Below are positions 1 through 10,124 of a stretch of DNA of 64,000 nucleotides, piece by piece (position 1 is the first letter of the stretch; each line of letters starts with the position of its first letter). Location of the stretch: assembly GCF_056746865.1 (NCBI RefSeq), contig NZ_CM163382.1; one strand, written 5' to 3'. The position numbers and the translations under genes were made by a program. The notes beneath the pieces were generated by a model, which saw only the letters and a list, made by a program, of their open reading frames with translations, was not told where the DNA came from and did not search any database.

Positions 1-174
1 CTTACATAATTAAGGAGAACAAAATGGAACTTAATACACGCCAACAATTTGTATTACTTAAATAGACCAGTGAAGGTACGCATCAGAACATCCGGTGAAG
101 TGATTAATATTTCGTTGAATATTTCTCCCGATTTTTGAAACCTGCTGCTGTAGAAATTCTGAACAGGAGGAATT

Positions 175-459
175 ATGCCTTTAGCAGCCAAACTCACCGA
201 CAAAGGCACCCAGCACGACGGTTATTACGAGACCGTCATCACCGCCGGGTCATCCACCGTCTTTATCGATGGTCTTCCCGCAGCCCGTCAGGGAGATCCG
301 CTGACGCCGCATGCTAAACCGAAGCATCCCCCTCATCCCCGTAAAATCGCCAGAGGTTCTTCAACCGTCTTTATTGACGGCCTGCCCGCCGCCAGAAGCG
401 GTGATGCTGTTGACTGCGGCGGCGTGGTTATTGGTGGCGGTACGGTAAATATAGGCTGA
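175..459 (+). CDS. PAAR-domain protein (T6SS spike-sharpening protein), 94 aa
   Basis: Translation contains two GLPAAR(Q/S)GD motifs and a glycine-rich tail; GGAGG RBS 8 nt upstream of ATG; lies 18 nt upstream of vgrG. Confidence 0.75.
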   Translation: MPLAAKLTDKGTQHDGYYETVITAGSSTVFIDGLPAARQGDPLTPHAKPKHPPHPRKIARGSSTVFIDGLPAARSGDAVDCGGVVIGGGTVNIG

Positions 460-477
460 TATGTCTGAGAGGTATTT

Positions 478-2883
478 ATGTCCTTAAAAGGTCTTCGCTT
501 TACGCTGGAGGTTGACGGCCAGGAGCCGGACACCTTTGCAGTGGTGAATTTCAGGTTAATCCAGAACCAGTCATATCCGTTTGTGATGAGTGTGGATGTT
601 GCCAGCGACTCTTTTATGCAGACGGCGGAGATGCTGCTGGAGAAGAAGGCGACACTGACCATCTGGCAGGGCGCAGTGGCGCAGCGTTATGTCACCGGCG
701 TGGTGGCGGGTTTTGGCATGCAGGAGAATAACGGCTGGCAGATGCGTTATCACCTGCGTATTGAGCCGCCGTTATGGCGGTGCGGGCTGCGGCAGAACTT
801 TCGTATCTTCCAGCAGCAGGATATCCGGACGATATCGGCCACGTTACTGAACGAGAACGGCGTCACGGAGTGGACGCCGCTGTTTTATGAGGACCATCCG
901 GCGCGGGAGTTCTGTGTCCAGTACGGGGAGTCGGACCTGGCGTTTCTGTCCCGGCTATGGGCGGAGGAGGGTCTTTTCTTCTTTGAGCGGTTTGCGGCGG
1001 ACAGTCCGGAGCAGAAGCTGACGCTGTGCGACGATGTGGCGGGGCTGTCACAGGCGGGGGAGTTTCCGTTTAACCCGGACACATCGGCAGGAGCGGAGAC
1101 GGAGTGTGTCAGTATGTTCCGTTATGAGGCGCATGTCCGCCCGTCATCGGTGCAGAGCCAGGATTACACCTTTAAGGTGCCGGACTGGCCGGGGATGTAT
1201 GAGCAGCAGGGTGAGAACCTGAACGGACAGCTGGAGCAGTATGAGATATTTGATTATCCGGGAAGGTACAAGGATGAACAGCACGGCAAGGATTTCACGC
1301 TGTACCAGATGGAGAGCCTGCGCAGTGATGCGGAAAAGGCCACAGGGCAGAGTAATTCGCCGAAGCTGTGGCCGGGAACGCGGTTTATGCTGACGGGGCA
1401 TCCGCAGAAGATGCTGAACCGTGAATGGCAGGTGGTACAGAGCATACTGTCAGGAAACCAGCCGCAGGCGCTGCACGGCAGCCAGGGAAAGGGAACCACG
1501 CTGGGCAATCAGTTAGAGGTGATACCGGCGGACCGGACGTGGCGTCCACGGCTGCAAAACAAACCGAAGGTGGACGGGCCACAGAGCGCCATTGTCACCG
1601 GTCCTGCGGGAGAGGAAATCTTCTGCGACGAACACGGACGTGTGCGAGTGCAGTTTCACTGGGACAGGTATAACCCGGCAACGGAGGCGAGTTCATGCTG
1701 GGTGAGGGTGTCGCAGGCGTGGGCGGGGCCGGGGTTCGGTAACCTGGCGATACCACGGGTGGGTCAGGAGGTGATAGTGGACTTCCTGAACGGCGACCCG
1801 GACCAGCCGATAATCATGGGGCGGACGTACCATGAGGACAACCGTTCGCCGGGCGACCTGCCGGGAACGAAGACGCAGATGACCATCCGGTCAAAAACCT
1901 ATAAAGGAAGCGGATTTAACGAGCTGCGGTTTGAAGACGCCACCAGTAATGAGCAGGTGTATATCCATGCCCAGAAGAACATGGATACGGAGGTGCTCAA
2001 CGACCGGACAACGGATGTGAAACATGACCATACGGAAACCATCGGGAACGACCAGAAGATAACGGTGGTGAAGGGGCAGACGGTTCAGGTCGGGACCAGA
2101 AAAGAAGGGGGCCACGACCAGAGTATCACGGTGGCGAACGACCGGTGCATCACGGTACGTAATGACCAGACGCTGCAGGTGACGAATGACCGGACGGTGA
2201 GCGTGAGTAATGATGACGGCCTGTACGTCAGAAATGACCGTAAAGTGACGGTGGAAGGGAAGCAGGAGCATAAGACGACGGGGAACCATATCAGTCTGGT
2301 GGAGGGAAAGCACAGCCTGGTGGTGAAGGGGGACCTGGCGAGGAAGGTGAGTGGCGCGCTGGGGATAAAGGTGGACGGGGATATCGTGCTGGAGAGCAGC
2401 AGCCGGATAAGCCTGAAGGTGAGTGGCTCGTTTGTGGTCATCCATTCAGGGGGCGTGGACATCGTCGGGCCGAAAATCAATCTCAATAGCGGCGGTAGTC
2501 CGGGGACGCCGGTGCCGGCGCTGCAACCGGCGGTGCTGAAGACACTGGGGGATGAGAAGAGTGGTGATGGCAGTGATTCCGGAGAAGAAAATGAAGACTC
2601 TGGAGGGAACTGCGTGACCGGAAGTGGTGGTGATGATCGAGGTGACGATGAGGATGAACCTGAAAAATATACTCTCCAGTTCCATTTTACAGACGATGAC
2701 GGGATACCGTATTCAGAAACCCGCTACATTGCCTTCTTTGAGGATGGCACGCAGACCCGCGGAGAAACGGATGAAGAGGGGTATACAGAGCGTTTTTTTG
2801 TATCTAGCAAACATGAAATTAAAGTGAAGTTGTTATTTGCGAATGATGATTTTCTCTCAATGGAAGGACACTATGGACGATAA
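478..2883 (+). CDS. vgrG: Type VI secretion spike protein VgrG (gp27/gp5-like) with C-terminal acidic linker and extension domain, 801 aa
   Basis: N-terminus MSLKGLRFTLEVDG, conserved core GPAGEEIFCDEHGRVRV...QAWAGPGFGNLAIPRVGQEVIVDFLNGDPDQPIIMGRTYH, followed by gp5-like beta-helix octapeptide repeats (VxNDRTxxV...), then a D/E/G/S-rich linker and about 100 aa C-terminal domain. Confidence 0.9.
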   Translation: MSLKGLRFTLEVDGQEPDTFAVVNFRLIQNQSYPFVMSVDVASDSFMQTAEMLLEKKATLTIWQGAVAQRYVTGVVAGFGMQENNGWQMRYHLRIEPPLWRCGLRQNFRIFQQQDIRTISATLLNENGVTEWTPLFYEDHPAREFCVQYGESDLAFLSRLWAEEGLFFFERFAADSPEQKLTLCDDVAGLSQAGEFPFNPDTSAGAETECVSMFRYEAHVRPSSVQSQDYTFKVPDWPGMYEQQGENLNGQLEQYEIFDYPGRYKDEQHGKDFTLYQMESLRSDAEKATGQSNSPKLWPGTRFMLTGHPQKMLNREWQVVQSILSGNQPQALHGSQGKGTTLGNQLEVIPADRTWRPRLQNKPKVDGPQSAIVTGPAGEEIFCDEHGRVRVQFHWDRYNPATEASSCWVRVSQAWAGPGFGNLAIPRVGQEVIVDFLNGDPDQPIIMGRTYHEDNRSPGDLPGTKTQMTIRSKTYKGSGFNELRFEDATSNEQVYIHAQKNMDTEVLNDRTTDVKHDHTETIGNDQKITVVKGQTVQVGTRKEGGHDQSITVANDRCITVRNDQTLQVTNDRTVSVSNDDGLYVRNDRKVTVEGKQEHKTTGNHISLVEGKHSLVVKGDLARKVSGALGIKVDGDIVLESSSRISLKVSGSFVVIHSGGVDIVGPKINLNSGGSPGTPVPALQPAVLKTLGDEKSGDGSDSGEENEDSGGNCVTGSGGDDRGDDEDEPEKYTLQFHFTDDDGIPYSETRYIAFFEDGTQTRGETDEEGYTERFFVSSKHEIKVKLLFANDDFLSMEGHYGR

Positions 2884-3664
2884 TAATCAAACTTCTGGAC
2901 AACCAAAGCCAGAGCCAGAAGAATGTGTGAAAGAGCAAAAAATAACTGATCATTTTAAAATAATGATTGATAAGGCTCGTAAGGCACAAAAGTTGGTTTT
3001 GATAAAAAGAGCAGATGATCTTTTGAGATGGGGAGCACAGGAGGAATATGATTTCAGTAAGATCTTTGGTGTTAAAGGAAATAAGGAGGTTAATATAAGA
3101 AAATATGGACATAATACAGGTAGGCGCATGAATGCTAGATTTCTTATGATGGATGGTGTGAGAAGATTAATGATTATAGCTAATGATTTAACAATGAGCA
3201 GTTTTATAAATTATACAGGTTGTAATGAATTTGCAGCATTCGTCAGCCCAAGTAAGGATATGCCCTATATAATTAACATAGGCGCAAAATTTGAGTATAG
3301 AGATGGCAAAAAAAATCCAGTAACGGGAAAGGATTCTCATGTTGCTACTTTATGTCATGAAATGTCTCATATTCAGTGGTATTATGGGGATAATAAAAAA
3401 GGTGGTATGTGGTCACAGGATTATACAACTACTGATAAATATTCAACGTGCAAAGAGGATGAAGTTTCATATGACGAACATATCCGTATTGCAACTAAAC
3501 TGATCTCTAAACAAAAAGATCAAATATTCGAGAATGCATATAACATAGAAAGATATTTTGAAATAAGATTAATTGAAAGTGAGATAGACTCGATTAATGA
3601 TGAAATATTAAGCAATTCAGTTAAGAAAAAAATAGCGGAATTAGAAAAAGCACTTCTCCATTAA
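2873..3664 (+). CDS. Putative HExxH zinc-metallopeptidase-like protein; candidate VgrG-associated cargo effector
   Basis: ORF overlapping the vgrG stop (ATG at 2873, alternative ATG at 2837); motif ATLCHEMSHIQW (HExxH); abrupt drop to AT-rich composition; no confident family assignment. Confidence 0.5.
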   Translation: MDDNNQTSGQPKPEPEECVKEQKITDHFKIMIDKARKAQKLVLIKRADDLLRWGAQEEYDFSKIFGVKGNKEVNIRKYGHNTGRRMNARFLMMDGVRRLMIIANDLTMSSFINYTGCNEFAAFVSPSKDMPYIINIGAKFEYRDGKKNPVTGKDSHVATLCHEMSHIQWYYGDNKKGGMWSQDYTTTDKYSTCKEDEVSYDEHIRIATKLISKQKDQIFENAYNIERYFEIRLIESEIDSINDEILSNSVKKKIAELEKALLH

Positions 3665-3716
3665 CTAATAAGTCGAGAAATATATTAATGCTGCAAGCTA
3701 TAAAAAAATCATAATA

Positions 3717-4346
3717 ATGACAATCGTAAATATTATATTTTTCTATTCCTTTCAATCGACTGCGGATGAAATGGTTTTAATAAAAAAATACGGGTTTGGG
3801 CTTGAGAGAGATATCAAAGGAAGGCCATTAATTTATCCTATCGAAAATTATGATGAGTGTAAGAAAAAATGCAATCATATGAATTATATAGCGGATGTCA
3901 ATGCTCAATTAGCTATGAGTAAAAAAAACAACAGGATTTTTGCTAACATAACCTTTACTAACAATAGCTCTACCACGTATTTTTTTTCTAAATATTACCT
4001 ACCTATGAAAGTAAAAGATGGAAAAGGAGATGAATATGATGCGATATGCAAAAAACCATTCAGAATCAACTCTGGGAATATCACGTTGGACTACTTAGGT
4101 GGTTCATGTCCTTTTGAAATTAATACGAATCCTGAACGGTGGAATACTATTAAACCAGGTCGTAGTTTTTTGTTGAGTATAACCTTAAATGATATGTATG
4201 CCTTTATACCAGGAGATAATTATTATTTTATAAAATCATCTGGCTATAAATTTGTTAATGACAAGTGGTTTACACTCAAATCAATCAATAATATTTTTCT
4301 TTATTTTTTAAATTTAAAAATTAATTGTGCTGATGATTTTTTTTGA
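3717..4346 (+). CDS. Hypothetical protein, AT-rich; candidate immunity/accessory protein of the vgrG cargo
   Basis: 209-aa ORF immediately downstream of the HExxH gene, same strand; no recognisable motif; start codon uncertain. Confidence 0.35.
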   Translation: MTIVNIIFFYSFQSTADEMVLIKKYGFGLERDIKGRPLIYPIENYDECKKKCNHMNYIADVNAQLAMSKKNNRIFANITFTNNSSTTYFFSKYYLPMKVKDGKGDEYDAICKKPFRINSGNITLDYLGGSCPFEINTNPERWNTIKPGRSFLLSITLNDMYAFIPGDNYYFIKSSGYKFVNDKWFTLKSINNIFLYFLNLKINCADDFF

Positions 4347-4528
4347 TATTAATAATTTTACTACATGTGATAATTTGTTATTAGATGAAAAAAAATACTT
4401 TTTTATTAATCAGTTATGGGCAATTGAGGATGAAAAAAATTCTATTTACGTCACCCCTGATGAAATTTCTATAAGTATAGACGGCGATAACTTAAAGTTG
4501 CCATATTAGGAATCTGTGAAAGAACAAG

Positions 4529-5017
4529 GTGCGCCGCTTTTTTGTACTAAATAATTCGCATTTTAGTCACGGCAGAGAAGAAATCCATCTTCATATTGTT
4601 TGCGATGTCCCTGATGAACTTATTGATTTCACGTTTGAATGGAAAGGTCAGAAGAAATTATGCGTGGCAGTCTCCTTTTGGTCAATAATAGCAGAACAAA
4701 AGAAAGAGCCAGAAATGACGGTCAGATATTATATCAGTTCTGCTGATTTAACCGCAAAAAAGTTCGCCACAGCGATACGAAATCACTGGCACGTGGAGAA
4801 TAAGCTGCACTGGCGTCTGGACGTGGTAATGAACGAAGACGACTGCAAAATAAGAAGAGGAAACGCCGCAGAATTATTTTCAGGGATACGGCACATCGCT
4901 ATTAATATTTTAACGAATGATAAGGTATTCAAGGCAGGGTTAAGACGCAAGATGCGAAAAGCAGCTATGGACAGAGACTACCTCGCGTCAGTCCTTGCGG
5001 GGAGCGGGCTTTCGTAA
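4529..5017 (+). pseudogene. H-repeat (ISAs1-family) transposase, C-terminal fragment
   Basis: Translation ...[63 protein letters not shown]...[20 protein letters not shown] matches the C-terminal half of Rhs-associated H-rpt proteins (YhhI/YdcC-like); N-terminal half is absent. Confidence 0.75.
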
Positions 5018-5125
5018 TCTTGCCCTGGCGATCGAATAGCGCAGATGACGGTGCTCTAAATTTGAATCTAATAAGCCGGTGTTATTTTTCATCCACTATT
5101 AAAATCTTGACACAACGAGGCAACA

Positions 5126-5686
5126 ATGAAAAAAAGCAAAAAAATTAAAACAATGAACCATCAAAATAATAGCGGGATACAAAATCAACCAGACTATCAC
5201 ATCGAAATAGAAAGAAAAAATATGGTAAGATTGCTTGATGAACGTATTGATAAAGTTTACGGTTCATTGCTAGGACCAATGAAAAAGAAAAATATAGATA
5301 AAATACGTCATTTTACACTTGATGTAATGGTGTTTATTCTTGACACGAACCCTCGTGTTTGTAATAAATTATCCAGGGAAATAATATCTTTAGCGCAAAA
5401 TACCTTCATTGAAAAAAACGTTAATTTTTCAACTTTTAATAATGAACAGCATAGAATAAGGGAGTATATGAATGAAGGTGGTGGAATACGATGGTTTACA
5501 TGGGATAACCCCGAGATATCTTTTGTTCGTGCATCTTTTGGCCTTTTTGTCAAAATGGAAACAAAAGGTGATCATGAACATACACTAAGTGACACATTTC
5601 TTCAGATTGTTGAGTGTGTTAATTTAAATATAGGACTTATTGCAAAAGATGAACTGGTAAAAATCATCAATAAACACTTTATGTAA
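5126..5686 (+). CDS. Hypothetical protein (186 aa), AT-rich island ORF
   Basis: Clean ORF with A-rich upstream region; no recognisable domain; located in the low-GC region downstream of vgrG. Confidence 0.35.
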   Translation: MKKSKKIKTMNHQNNSGIQNQPDYHIEIERKNMVRLLDERIDKVYGSLLGPMKKKNIDKIRHFTLDVMVFILDTNPRVCNKLSREIISLAQNTFIEKNVNFSTFNNEQHRIREYMNEGGGIRWFTWDNPEISFVRASFGLFVKMETKGDHEHTLSDTFLQIVECVNLNIGLIAKDELVKIINKHFM

Positions 5687-6045
5687 AAATATACTTCTGT
5701 ATGAAGTTATAATAATACAGTGAAAATCATCAAATTATTAATTAATGATGCTCTTTGTTATTATTTACTTTTTACAATTGAATCAGGGGTTTTATTTTCT
5801 GTAGTAAAGTTGTATTTTTGCTAAAGGTGATAAAGTACAGGTGTTTATATTAAATTAGAACTCCCCTTAATTATCATAAATACAAAGAGGTGAAAACATG
5901 CGGGGGTGTTTTCGTTAAATAATACCATGGTGAATTAATAACATGCTATCAGTGATATACATATTTTCTCTAACAAAGTTTTAGTAAAATTACGCGTAGT
6001 AAGAAGATTCCGCCAAAGATTCCATATAATAATATTAAGGTTGTT

Positions 6046-6681
6046 ATGAATAAAGGTAATAGATTACAACAGTTAGAAGATGCGTGTCGTGATATTATTA
6101 AAATTAACATGTGGTATGAACTCCCCGATTATGTATTTTTTTCAATATCTGACACCATCGATGGGACGAGTGATGAATTCGCAATAAATGTGTATAAAAA
6201 TATCGATAAAAGTCTTCTTGAAATATTATTGCATCCATCTGTTTTACTGTCAGTTGTTGAGTCCTTACAAAGTAATACTATAGCTGAGTATATCGTGAAA
6301 TTGTCTGAAATAGAGATGAATTATGACGACTTGCTAATATCGGATGTTAAATCATGTCTTTTTATCAACTATGGATTCAATAACAGTGAATCGGTTGCGC
6401 TATTTAATAAGATTTACCGCGAATTAAAAGATATTGTAAAATCATCAAGAGTACATATAGATCATGAGAAAGATATTTTTGATGGCCTTAATCAAATCTT
6501 GGCTTTTTCCGATAATAATAAACATGAGTATTTTTTATATATAAAGGCATATTGGCTCAGTTTATACTTTTGTGAAATTTCACAGAACGTGAGAGAAAGA
6601 GATAAGTTGTCATTTTATTATAATGAATTTTCTGTCCGATTTCCTAATGTTGTCCTATATCCGTCATGCTACAAATTGTAA
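6046..6681 (+). CDS. Hypothetical protein (211 aa), AT-rich island ORF
   Basis: Clean ORF in the low-GC region; no recognisable domain. Confidence 0.35.
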   Translation: MNKGNRLQQLEDACRDIIKINMWYELPDYVFFSISDTIDGTSDEFAINVYKNIDKSLLEILLHPSVLLSVVESLQSNTIAEYIVKLSEIEMNYDDLLISDVKSCLFINYGFNNSESVALFNKIYRELKDIVKSSRVHIDHEKDIFDGLNQILAFSDNNKHEYFLYIKAYWLSLYFCEISQNVRERDKLSFYYNEFSVRFPNVVLYPSCYKL

Positions 6682-7073
6682 GGCTTGGCACCTGAAATTC
6701 ATTGTTAATTCGAGACGCTTGATTGTCCACTATATCAAAACAGTCATACCTCGGAATTTTCTCGCATTAGTCCATACGGTATTCAATATTCGCAACTGTG
6801 CCCTGAAATAAAAAACTGCAAAACTGCTTTTTCTTGACCTGTCCCAATCACGCAAGACTACTTTTAGTAGAGACCTCCAGCTATGTCGATTTTAGTGCCG
6901 CCCGCGCATTTTATACAAAACAGGGCTTTATTAATGAAGCTATAATACGCAATTACTATGATGTTGGTGAGGATAAATTAATCTTCACTAAAAATATGCA
7001 ATCGTGAGATAAAATATGCTTTTAACTCATATTGAAACATTGCTTAAGCAACTTGGTTGCTGCATATGATTCT

Positions 7074-7643
7074 TTAGCCCGCGGTGACTCGCTTGCCGCT
7101 GGTAACAAACGTGCCAGCACCTAAGTGATGTAGTTTATTGAGTTTATCATCATCAAACTGCCAGCGGCCTTCGACAAATACCCGTGCGTCTGCCGCTGCT
7201 GATACCACCTCGCCAAACAGCGTGTCGTATTTTTCTTGCGCGGAAGTCGCAGGTAGCAAGCGGCACTCCATCCACGCCAGACATTTTTCCTCGACCAGAG
7301 GCAAACCAAGTACCGGACCTTTCACTACTGGAATGCCGTAGCAATTAAATTTATCTTCTTCACGACCCGACACACTTCCCACCGCCCACGTCCAGTTAGT
7401 TGCTGCAACGCCCGGGATAACGATGCCAAATTTACCGTTACGTTCAATCAACTCCCTGGTCCATGTCGATTTATCTACCACGATCGCAACACGTGGCGGT
7501 TCAAACTCTACCGGCATCGACCAGGCCGCAGCCATCACATTACGTCGCTGTGATTTTTCATCAAAAGTTGTTATCAAAATAGTTGGGCCATGATTTAACA
7601 GACGGCTGGCATGGTGTAATTCGACAGGGATGAATCGGCTCAC
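7074..7643 (-). CDS. yddH: Flavin reductase-like domain protein YddH
   Basis: 189-aa translation MSRFIPVELHHASRLLNHGPTILITT... matches remembered E. coli YddH. Confidence 0.8.
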   Translation of the reverse strand: MSRFIPVELHHASRLLNHGPTILITTFDEKSQRRNVMAAAWSMPVEFEPPRVAIVVDKSTWTRELIERNGKFGIVIPGVAATNWTWAVGSVSGREEDKFNCYGIPVVKGPVLGLPLVEEKCLAWMECRLLPATSAQEKYDTLFGEVVSAAADARVFVEGRWQFDDDKLNKLHHLGAGTFVTSGKRVTAG

Positions 7644-7817
7644 GGTATCGCCTCGCTAAGAAGGGGGTTTTAAAAGCGTAGCTCGTAACGCTATAAGTAA
7701 CGAAATTAACGGGATTGGCGATTTGCGAACGTGATGCATGTCCGCGATCGCACAAAATAGCCGGTGCGGCGTCTATTCCAGGTTATAAGTTGAGAAAACC
7801 ACTAAGGGAAACGCCTG

Positions 7818-8663
7818 ATGACGCCCATTCTGAATCATTATTTTGCCCGTATTAACTGGTCGGGAGCTGCTGCGGTCAATATTGATACGCTGCGTGCATT
7901 GCACCTGAAACACAATTGCACCATTCCATTCGAAAACCTCGACGTTTTGCTGCCAAGGGAAATACAGCTTGATGATCAATCGCTGGAAGAGAAACTGGTG
8001 ACAGCCCGTCGTGGTGGTTACTGTTTTGAGCAGAATGGCGTGTTTGAGCGGGTGTTACGCGAGCTGGGGTTTAACGTTCGCAGCTTGTTAGGGCGCGTAG
8101 TGTTATCAAATCCGCCAGCATTACCGCCGCGCACCCATCGTTTGTTGTTGGTGGAACTGGAAGGGGAAAAATGGATTGCTGATGTCGGTTTCGGTGGACA
8201 GACGCTAACCGCGCCGATTCGTTTAGTTCCCGATCTCGTGCAGATCACGCCACACGGAGAGTATCGGTTGTTACAGGAGGGTGATGATTGGGTGTTGCAG
8301 TTTAATCATCATCAGCACTGGCAGTCGATGTACCGTTTTGATCTCTGCGAGCAGCAACAAAGCGATTATGTAATGGGCAATTTCTGGTCTGCGCACTGGC
8401 CGCAGTCGCATTTTCGCCATCATTTGCTGATGTGCCGCCATTTGCCGGACGGCGGCAAGCTGACACTGACCAATTTTCATTTTACCCATTATGAAAATGG
8501 GCACGCGGTGGAGCAGCGAAATCTACCAGATGTGGCGTCGTTATATGCCGTGATGCAGGAACAGTTTGGTCTGGGCGTAGATGATGCGAAACATGGCTTT
8601 ACTGTGGATGAGTTAGCGATGGTGATGGCGGCGTTTGATACGCACCCGGAGGCGGGAAAATAA
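7818..8663 (+). CDS. nhoA: N-hydroxyarylamine O-acetyltransferase
   Basis: 281-aa translation MTPILNHYFARINWSG... with arylamine N-acetyltransferase catalytic region GGYCFEQN; length matches NhoA. Confidence 0.9.
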   Translation: MTPILNHYFARINWSGAAAVNIDTLRALHLKHNCTIPFENLDVLLPREIQLDDQSLEEKLVTARRGGYCFEQNGVFERVLRELGFNVRSLLGRVVLSNPPALPPRTHRLLLVELEGEKWIADVGFGGQTLTAPIRLVPDLVQITPHGEYRLLQEGDDWVLQFNHHQHWQSMYRFDLCEQQQSDYVMGNFWSAHWPQSHFRHHLLMCRHLPDGGKLTLTNFHFTHYENGHAVEQRNLPDVASLYAVMQEQFGLGVDDAKHGFTVDELAMVMAAFDTHPEAGK

Positions 8664-8734: not shown

Positions 8735-9265
8735 GTGCAGTTTATGAAACATTCATTTGAAGTAAAACTTGCCGCTGTAAATCATTACCTGGCTGGTCAT
8801 GCAGGCATCATTTCTACGGTAAAACTCTTTCAACTTTCTCACACCAGCCTCTCACACTGGATTAATCTTTTTCTTCTTCACGGTCCTCGGGCACTGGATT
8901 GCAGACACAAGCGTAGCTATTCTCCTGAAGATAAACTTTGCGTGGTTCTTTATGCTCTCGGGCATTCTGAGTCTCTACCCCGGGTAGCTGCCCGGTTTAA
9001 CATTCCCAGCCACAACACGGTTAAAAACTGGATAAAAGGCTACCGCAAATCTGGTAATGAGGCCTTTATCAGGCGCAGGAAGGAGAAAAGCATGACCCGT
9101 TCTGATGATACCCATGAAAACGAGGCAAACATGACGCCGGAAGAGATGAAGAATGAGCTGCGTTATCTTCGCGCAGAAAATGCATATCTGAAAGCCATGC
9201 AGGAGCATCTCCTGGAAAAAAAGCGCCAGGAGCTGGAGAAAAAACGAAAGTCATCCGGAGCCTGA
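8735..9265 (+). CDS. IS3-family transposase OrfA (HTH DNA-binding and leucine-zipper part)
   Basis: 176 aa; HTH region followed by heptad leucine repeat (NELRYLRAENAYLKAMQEHLLEKKRQELEKKRK); ends just after an A6 run. Confidence 0.8.
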   Translation: MQFMKHSFEVKLAAVNHYLAGHAGIISTVKLFQLSHTSLSHWINLFLLHGPRALDCRHKRSYSPEDKLCVVLYALGHSESLPRVAARFNIPSHNTVKNWIKGYRKSGNEAFIRRRKEKSMTRSDDTHENEANMTPEEMKNELRYLRAENAYLKAMQEHLLEKKRQELEKKRKSSGA

Positions 9266-9369
9266 GGTGCGGACACTGCCAGTCTGACCTGTTAAAGGCT
9301 GCAGGGCTGGCCAGAAGCACGCTGTACTACCAGCTGTCACTGCAGAAGGCTAAGGACAAGTATGCTGAT

Positions 9370-10124
<755 letters not shown>

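Follow-up and report, generated by a model that had tools for sequence, protein, structure and literature searches.

The question raised by this locus is what is encoded by two small open reading frames (ORFs) of no assigned function that lie behind the remnant of an H-repeat (H-rpt) transposase. They belong to a stretch of 64,000 nt (contig NZ_CM163382.1 of RefSeq assembly GCF_056746865.1; hereafter the window), which is part of an Escherichia coli chromosome, positions 2800-7100 being 100% identical to many complete genomes, for example that of strain EF5-18-41. An earlier note, made from the letters alone, had suggested that these two ORFs, here called ORF A and ORF B, may be orphan immunity or toxin-tip cassettes left from recombination at an ancestral rhs locus. 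We argue that they are probably two independent orphan immunity genes of polymorphic type VI secretion (T6SS) toxins, the relatives of ORF A standing behind an Rhs C-terminal (CT) tip and those of ORF B behind EndoU RNase domains.

Strain EF5-18-41 carries, in this order, yncG, PAAR, VgrG, “peptidase M35”, one hypothetical gene and an ISAs1 pseudogene, followed by two hypothetical genes, yddH, nhoA, IS1397, yddE and narVWYZ. The comparison with the ydcD region of E. coli K-12, proposed in the earlier note, proved apt, as the same site there holds rhsE, ydcD and an H-rpt; in full, K-12 has yncH, rhsE, ydcD, yncI, ydcC (H-rpt) and pptA between yncG and yddH. ORF A and ORF B are thus located in a variable yncG-yddH island, at the site of K-12 rhsE, and outside this island the window is ordinary core chromosome.

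Two AT-rich ORFs with signs of purifying selection

The two ORFs and the DNA between them are the following.

5126..5686, + strand: ORF A, 186 aa, predicted all-helical, putative orphan immunity gene (RefSeq hypothetical protein WP_000748591.1)
5687..6045, no strand: AT-rich non-coding spacer, 359 nt, with stops in all six frames
6046..6681, + strand: ORF B, 211 aa, predicted all-helical, putative orphan immunity gene (RefSeq hypothetical protein WP_001032567.1)

Both are present where the earlier note had placed them and are AT-rich, as it had said, with a GC content of 30.5% (ORF A) and 30.2% (ORF B) against 47.6% for the window; at that composition, the calculated chance of a stop-free run of 186-211 codons is about 1e-7 to 1e-8. 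They also lack recognizable motifs: neither had a match in Pfam, NCBIfam, PADLOC or, by sequence and profile searches, the PDB, and a search of the literature found no paper naming their RefSeq accessions. Their relatives in other genera are full-length and share many invariant columns, at 58-72% identity for ORF A and 53-63% for ORF B.

In deep comparisons by the Nei-Gojobori method, ORF A has a ratio of nonsynonymous to synonymous substitution rates (dN/dS) of 0.20-0.21 and ORF B one of 0.26-0.29; within the species it is 0.44 for ORF B. Compared with MB53, a divergent E. coli strain, the window is 96.8% identical in ORF A and 96.2% in ORF B, against 86-88% in the flanking and intervening non-coding DNA (87.6% in the spacer at 5687-6045). 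Judged from these comparisons, both ORFs are evidently under purifying selection. Shine-Dalgarno (SD)-like sites are kept among the homologues as well, GAGG before ORF A and AAGG before ORF B. An Rfam search of positions 4300-7100 gave no match. No terminator was predicted in the spacer or between the vgrG operon and the two ORFs and, since these are co-oriented with that operon, read-through from it into ORF A and ORF B would be possible.

The ORF A family and its Rhs toxin tip

The relatives of ORF A that occur outside the yncG-yddH site on long enough contigs all lie directly 3' of one family of Rhs C-terminal tips. In Citrobacter portucalensis (L005; L and P numbers denote the loci and proteins compared), the order is VgrG, DUF2169, a 1481-aa Rhs protein and, after a gap of 3 nt, P0006, which is 60% identical to ORF A; the 1481-aa protein carries Tox-PAAR-like, DUF6531, RHS repeats and RHS core regions, with a tip of about 130 aa after DPIGL...DPNGL. 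In E. coli L013 and L014, an orphan Rhs fragment of 440 aa with the Citrobacter-type tip (80% identical) is followed, again across 3 nt, by P0002 (72% identical to ORF A) and an intact H-rpt, within an Rhs array that also has a main Rhs with a Tox-SHH tip and then its immunity gene. In E. coli L012 and L015, P0002 and an H-rpt come after a truncated form of this tip, and on a metagenomic enterobacterial contig (L018/L019) an orphan tip (71% identical) precedes P0027 with a gap of about 27-60 nt. Across these four contexts the associated tip is 70-100% identical. Further relatives were sought by a word-indexed profile search, which added two members.

The tip has the motifs HGKCAEVDA and C(T/V)TCNP and matched dCMP_cyt_deam_1 (PF00383) at E=0.004, and no PDB sequence matched it. 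We therefore regard the Rhs tip cognate to ORF A as a probable zinc deaminase (CAE...CxxC) whose score, weighed below, lies under threshold.

A trace of such a toxin appears to have been left in the window itself.

5074..5123, + strand: apparent ~50-nt vestige of the cognate Rhs-CT toxin gene (its 3' end, ...CNPLLKIFGIM..TG*), directly 5' of ORF A

This segment aligns co-linearly with the final ~60 nt of the E. coli L013 toxin gene, from which it differs by a 10-nt and a 1-nt deletion, at a score of 16.5 that none of 2000 shuffled controls reached (mean 8.7, maximum 15.5). It contains the GAGG ribosome-binding site of ORF A, and blastn homology begins 24 nt 5' of the ATG. The alignment was significant against the L013 toxin only; that with the Citrobacter toxin was not. 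On this alignment, 5074-5123 is evidently a physical scar of a lost Rhs-CT toxin gene, and an ancestral rhs gene would have stood at this exact site in the lineage of the window. Such Rhs ancestry is indicated for ORF A only, of the two ORFs.

The ORF B family and EndoU toxins

Relatives of ORF B, down to 27% identity, stand directly 3' of an EndoU RNase domain or of its decayed tail in seven contexts. In Pseudocitrobacter faecalis (three assemblies), the order is DUF2169, Tox-PAAR-like, a 272-aa ORF, EndoU_bacteria (PF14436, 3e-15) and then P0018. In Shigella flexneri an 88-aa C-terminal remnant of EndoU (71% identical) precedes P0025, in L017 an EndoU tail precedes P0024, and decayed EndoU tails lie ahead of P0021 in E. 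albertii (E=6e-4) and of P0020 in L020 (E=6e-5). The gap between the EndoU ORF and the ORF B homologue is 10-17 nt (L006, L023, L025, L027), and two remote members of full length, P0034 and P0033 (27% and 34% identical to ORF B), follow EndoU ORFs by 10-15 nt. Such remote members occur in two settings, one an array with Rhs fragments in which the contig-truncated toxin ORF starts with “...PFGLL”, compatible with DPxGL, and the other a VgrG-DUF4123 locus with a row of orphan Pyocin_S-like toxin/immunity pairs.

The scaffolds that carry EndoU therefore comprise DUF2169/PAAR-like genes, VgrG-DUF4123/Pyocin_S-like delivery genes, the Rhs-fragment array and stand-alone remnants, and in the single complete example the toxin is on a DUF2169/PAAR-like-associated effector. 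From these gene orders, the ORF B family appears to track the EndoU domain across differing delivery scaffolds, and ORF B would be an immunity gene against EndoU toxins with no tie to Rhs. Its family has very few members, since a profile search with the ORF B hidden Markov model over 1.84 billion representatives returned only 16 proteins.

Several of its members are named aminopeptidase by NCBI and UniRef, and taken at face value this name would make ORF B an enzyme rather than an immunity protein. We consider that hardly tenable: no peptidase family in Pfam or NCBIfam matched even at permissive E-values, sequence and profile searches of the PDB and a fold search found no peptidase, the invariant columns of ORF B hold neither HExxH nor any other metallopeptidase motif, and identical or near-identical proteins elsewhere are recorded as “hypothetical protein”. 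The label is probably a propagated misannotation.

As an observation in its own right, the EndoU effector of Pseudocitrobacter (L006 3235-4400, L007, L008) is encoded in all three independent assemblies by two overlapping ORFs, of 272/278 aa and 135 aa. Over its N-terminal part it shares 37% identity with the start of a 367-aa protein of L017 whose C-terminus differs, suggestive of a polymorphic effector family whose Pseudocitrobacter member is either frameshifted or truly split.

Orphan status and independence of the two genes

Neither toxin was found in the window by tblastn, the ~50-nt scar 5' of ORF A is the only toxin sequence detected upstream of either ORF, and at blastn sensitivity the DNA of neither toxin is present in any of 5,426 complete E. 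coli genomes. In the same genomes the immunity portions occur 186 times for ORF A and 237 times for ORF B, in single copy and always at the yncG-yddH locus. Because toxin DNA was found neither in the window nor in those genomes, ORF A and ORF B would be immunity-only orphans.

A six-frame search of positions 1-8000, following the earlier note's proposal to look for DPxGL-type junctions that mark displaced Rhs tips, found no DPxGL, and no YD-repeat lies at or near the locus; in the 64-kb window the only DPxGL matches are two stray strings 16-20 kb downstream. No rhs-CT fragment running from a PxxxxDPxGL junction, by which a classical orphan rhs-CT/rhsI module is recognized, thus lies 5' of either immunity gene. 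Of the two kinds of cassette that the earlier note had considered, the immunity gene is upheld by homologues directly 3' of toxin domains and the toxin tip is not. An origin at an rhs locus is supported for ORF A only, by its Rhs-CT linkage and the ~50-nt scar; the EndoU toxin of ORF B is not Rhs-specific. The expected linkage of homologues to Rhs or T6SS loci was borne out in both families, those of ORF A following Rhs-CT and those of ORF B following EndoU in VgrG-, PAAR- and Rhs-associated arrays.

ORF A occurs without ORF B in L005, L012, L013 and L018, and ORF B without ORF A in L006, L009, L016, L017, L020, L022 and L025. Because each is found elsewhere without the other, the two are independent modules and not a pair. 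They could also be seen as one two-gene module (toxin-antitoxin, effector-immunity or anti-phage) carried as cargo by the H-rpt element, given that in E. coli the two sit side by side in one orientation and never apart (237 genomes, single copy) and that they adjoin a mobile-element remnant. Besides their separate occurrence outside E. coli, however, the 359-nt non-coding spacer between them and the lack of any PADLOC match speak against a two-gene module, and cargo status conflicts with strain MB53, which has both ORFs without an H-rpt, and with the right end of the element (5027), which lies upstream of both. We hold this explanation to be very improbable.

Weighing the orphan immunity reading

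In complete systems of both families the gene lies directly 3' of, and co-oriented with, a toxin domain, and each immunity family accompanies one toxin family whatever the scaffold or host, with P0030 as the sole exception. By the proposed mechanism, each immunity protein would be made in the cytoplasm, where it would bind the cognate toxin domain injected by a T6SS-armed neighbour and block it. The result would be protection from the rare E. coli, Citrobacter, Pseudocitrobacter and similar attackers that have those toxins, in a strain that does not itself carry them at the yncG-yddH locus. Binding, neutralization, expression and a present-day benefit are what we infer by analogy with known systems; orphan immunity genes that stay expressed and protective are established for contact-dependent growth inhibition (CDI) and Rhs systems, and were demonstrated in E. 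coli EC93 (Poole et al. 2011, PMC3150448).

Several observations weigh against this reading, and the assignment of function draws on synteny and purifying selection (dN/dS 0.2-0.3). The ORF A family is tiny, with four or five distinct contexts only, and the match of its Rhs tip to YwqJ-deaminase (PF14431; E=7.4e-5) scores 23.4 bits, under the cutoff of 25.9 bits. When 5029-5125 and 5687-6045 were examined by tblastn and shuffle-controlled local alignment, no significant toxin remnant was found before ORF B, and one distant ORF B relative, P0030 (a 401-aa call in L028), lies 3' of flgN with no toxin nearby. Since the alleles of the window are only 58-72% (ORF A) and 53-63% (ORF B) identical to homologues beside a recognizable toxin, cross-protection by them is uncertain. 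Structure prediction adds little: AlphaFold2 models from shallow alignments are all-helical, with 7 helices for ORF A at low confidence (pLDDT 54.8) and 13 helices for ORF B at moderate confidence (pLDDT 66.6), and a Foldseek search of the ORF B model against the PDB returned noise (best E=0.9, template modelling score below 0.31), such that the model offers no structural link from ORF B to any known immunity protein in the PDB. As to expression, a promoter scan was uninformative, with 12 promoter-like sites against 14.3 expected. Acquired AT-rich DNA in E. coli is commonly silenced by H-NS, and silencing of the DNA of ORF A and ORF B is plausible. Within the species, dN/dS of ORF A is 0.82, on 18 substitutions only, which is compatible with relaxed selection, and a deletion that starts inside the H-rpt has removed ORF A and two-thirds of ORF B from about 50 genomes.

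Some of these points would equally be expected if ORF A and ORF B were decaying, non-functional relics that once were immunity genes and give no protection at present. The dN/dS of 0.82, a promoter signal not above chance and the ~50 genomes lacking ORF A and most of ORF B would all fit, as would the absence of detectable cognate toxins from the 5,426 complete genomes and the damage, in the window, to the neighbouring GNAT gene, the H-rpt and the M35-adjacent gene alike. Yet both ORFs are intact in 186 genomes and 96-97% identical between the window and MB53 amid non-coding DNA at 86-88%; the SD sites are kept, and dN/dS of ORF B is 0.44 within the species and 0.26-0.29 in deep comparisons. 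Expressed and protective orphan immunity genes are, moreover, on record from EC93 (PMC3150448). We therefore think it unlikely, although a real prospect, that the two genes are relics, and retain orphan immunity genes as the probable reading.

A bolder extension of the orphan immunity reading would make the yncG-yddH site, in a subset of E. coli, a small reserve of immunity genes kept without their toxins. It would be directed against an uncharacterized CAE/CxxC deaminase-like Rhs tip and an EndoU RNase, which E. coli itself almost never carries and which were seen beside the two families in Citrobacter, Pseudocitrobacter and other enterobacteria. Both ORFs would then function in defence across genera, and ORF A would be to a new interbacterial deaminase toxin what DddI is to DddA, its natural inhibitor. 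We offer this tentatively and would not ourselves lean towards it.

H-rpt elements and the history of the locus

Two pieces of H-rpt lie on the two sides of the 4.5-kb PAAR-VgrG-M35 cassette (L001 5079-5235 and 9712-10228).

1..34, + strand: last 34 nt of a 157-nt H-rpt left-end fragment upstream of the PAAR gene
4511..5027, + strand: H-rpt/ISAs1 element with an internal deletion that joins 55 nt of left end (4511-4565) to the 3' 463 nt (4565-5027)

The transposase remnant that the earlier note had recognized at 4529-5017 was confirmed as a member, in remnant form, of the ISAs1-type DDE transposase family, and the element extends slightly beyond the coordinates given there. The ORF at 4529-5017 matched Pfam DDE_Tnp_1 (E=6.8e-9) and NCBIfam NF033564 (transpos_ISAs1; E=7.5e-34), the latter only from position 201 to 314 of a 314-position model; its truncated frame (4529/4556-5017) is a pseudogene in RefSeq, with the N-terminus missing. 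Positions 4565-5028 share 95% identity with the final 464 nt of ydcC, the H-rpt gene of K-12. An intact right end lies at 5027/5028, which is the divergence point of three H-rpt copies, and 4511-4565 is a second, diverged (76%) copy of the left end. The element is not complete, as it keeps only these 55 nt of diverged left end and has lost the N-terminal two-thirds of the transposase.

The upstream fragment is seen at its full 157 nt in the identical strain EF5-18-41 (L001 5079-5235). Its last part, window positions 1-34, matches the K-12 ydcC element at 100% (L011 8794-8827), and L001 5107-5235 is 94% identical to L011 8698-8827; the left ends of the two pieces that bracket the cassette are only 76% identical to each other. 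This bracketing by H-rpt pieces, together with strain 18KM2445, which lacks the cassette and whose only H-rpt runs without a break through the point at which the window has it, suggests that the VgrG cassette was gained or lost at the rhsE site by way of H-rpt.

Other strains place the two immunity genes in this history. MB53 has ORF A, ORF B and an intact GNAT gene of 155 aa but neither H-rpt nor the VgrG cassette; its homology to the window begins at 5056, and three small ORFs (90, 108 and 129 aa; L002 7826-8918), which may be further orphan immunity genes and have no Pfam match, replace the H-rpt/VgrG cassette directly 5' of ORF A. The deletion of 18KM2445 starts in the H-rpt and ends within ORF B, at window position 6441. 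In the lineage of the window, H-rpt fragments flank the VgrG-M35 cassette, and the GNAT gene is cut short by a 464-nt deletion. From the comparison of these three, the immunity genes would be older at the site than the H-rpt and VgrG insertions, and not cargo of the H-rpt. The H-rpt remnant to which the earlier note drew attention is thus a neighbour of the two genes and not their carrier, MB53 having both genes without it.

Neighbouring features

The remaining features of the island and its right flank are the following.

175..4509, + strand: cassette of PAAR, VgrG, M35-like metallopeptidase effector and probable immunity gene
175-459, + strand: PAAR gene
478-2883, + strand: VgrG gene
2873-3664, + strand: M35-like metallopeptidase effector
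3688-4509, + strand: probable immunity gene of the M35-like effector, split in the window into 3717-4346 and 4327-4509
6834..7007, + strand: GNAT acetyltransferase remnant, C-terminal 57 codons, intact (155 aa) in strain MB53
7074-7643, - strand: yddH
8735-10092: IS3-family element (RefSeq: IS1397) between nhoA and yddE, absent there in K-12 and MB53

VgrG carries an acidic C-terminal extension of about 110 residues past its gp5-like repeats, and its stop codon overlaps the RefSeq start of the M35-like effector by 11 nt (2873-2883), which is consistent with translational coupling of a spike protein with its cargo effector. The M35-adjacent gene is split by homopolymer indels relative to strain DG351-2, whose homologue is a single ORF of 273 aa (WP_001544554): A7 stands for A8 at 3701, and T8 for T7 at 4337. 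If it is an immunity gene, the split could be a sequencing artefact, phase variation or a real inactivation.

The GNAT remnant forms the right edge of the variable island, ahead of yddH, and has lost its 5' part through the 464-nt deletion, with a junction at about 6846-6848. The idea that it derives from a TacT-type toxin, which came from a TacA-GNAT pair near an ORF B homologue (L020), was ruled out, as the two GNATs are dissimilar and MB53 has no antitoxin ORF upstream.

Significance and comparison with known systems

The practical value of the result is modest. It makes “orphan T6SS/Rhs immunity protein” a defensible annotation for WP_000748591 (deaminase-like Rhs-CT) and WP_001032567 (EndoU), it points to an uncharacterized deaminase-like Rhs toxin tip together with its putative inhibitor, and it documents the remodelling of the rhsE site by H-rpt elements, a VgrG-effector cassette and deletions. 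If expressed, ORF A and ORF B would shape which T6SS-armed competitors can be withstood by the E. coli lineages that carry them, many of which come from human and poultry sources.

In several respects, the locus resembles the orphan rhs-CT/rhsI and cdiA-CT/cdiI modules (Poole et al. 2011, PMC3150448; Koskiniemi et al. 2014, PMC3967940). Small immunity ORFs with translation signals of their own lie 3' of an Rhs/T6SS locus, insertion sequence remnants adjoin them, homologues sit behind full-length toxins in other strains or species, and ORF A keeps a fragment of a toxin gene in front. The classical modules, however, keep a toxin-CT fragment from the DPxGL or VENN junction onwards, whereas here only about 50 nt precede ORF A, so that no re-loadable toxin remains. 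The locus of the window strain also has, unlike orphan rhs modules, no rhs core, and a VgrG-M35 cassette takes the place of K-12 rhsE.

With the rhsE-ydcD-yncI-ydcC element of K-12, the locus shares the yncG/yddH insertion site, the H-rpt family (95% nucleotide identity over 464 nt) and the presence of AT-rich downstream ORFs. It differs in that K-12 has no counterpart of ORF A or ORF B; their place, and that of the GNAT remnant, is taken there by pptA.

Immunity genes kept without a matching effector, presumably against non-kin attackers, are reportedly also found in the orphan immunity arrays of Vibrio cholerae and in the acquired interbacterial defence (AID) systems of Bacteroidales. In contrast to these, there are two genes only here, no recombinase- or integrase-driven array is present, and the link to mobility is a dead ISAs1 element. 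The CdiA-CT/CdiI pair of E. coli STEC_O31 is said to be an EndoU toxin/immunity pair, and would thus share its toxin family with the cognate of ORF B (PF14436). ORF B showed no significant sequence or profile similarity to any PDB chain in PDB-wide searches, and because of this it appears to be a distinct immunity family. Taken together, ORF A and ORF B reveal no new kind of system; orphan immunity genes are a well-known kind of feature, of which the two genes represent two small, so far unnamed families.

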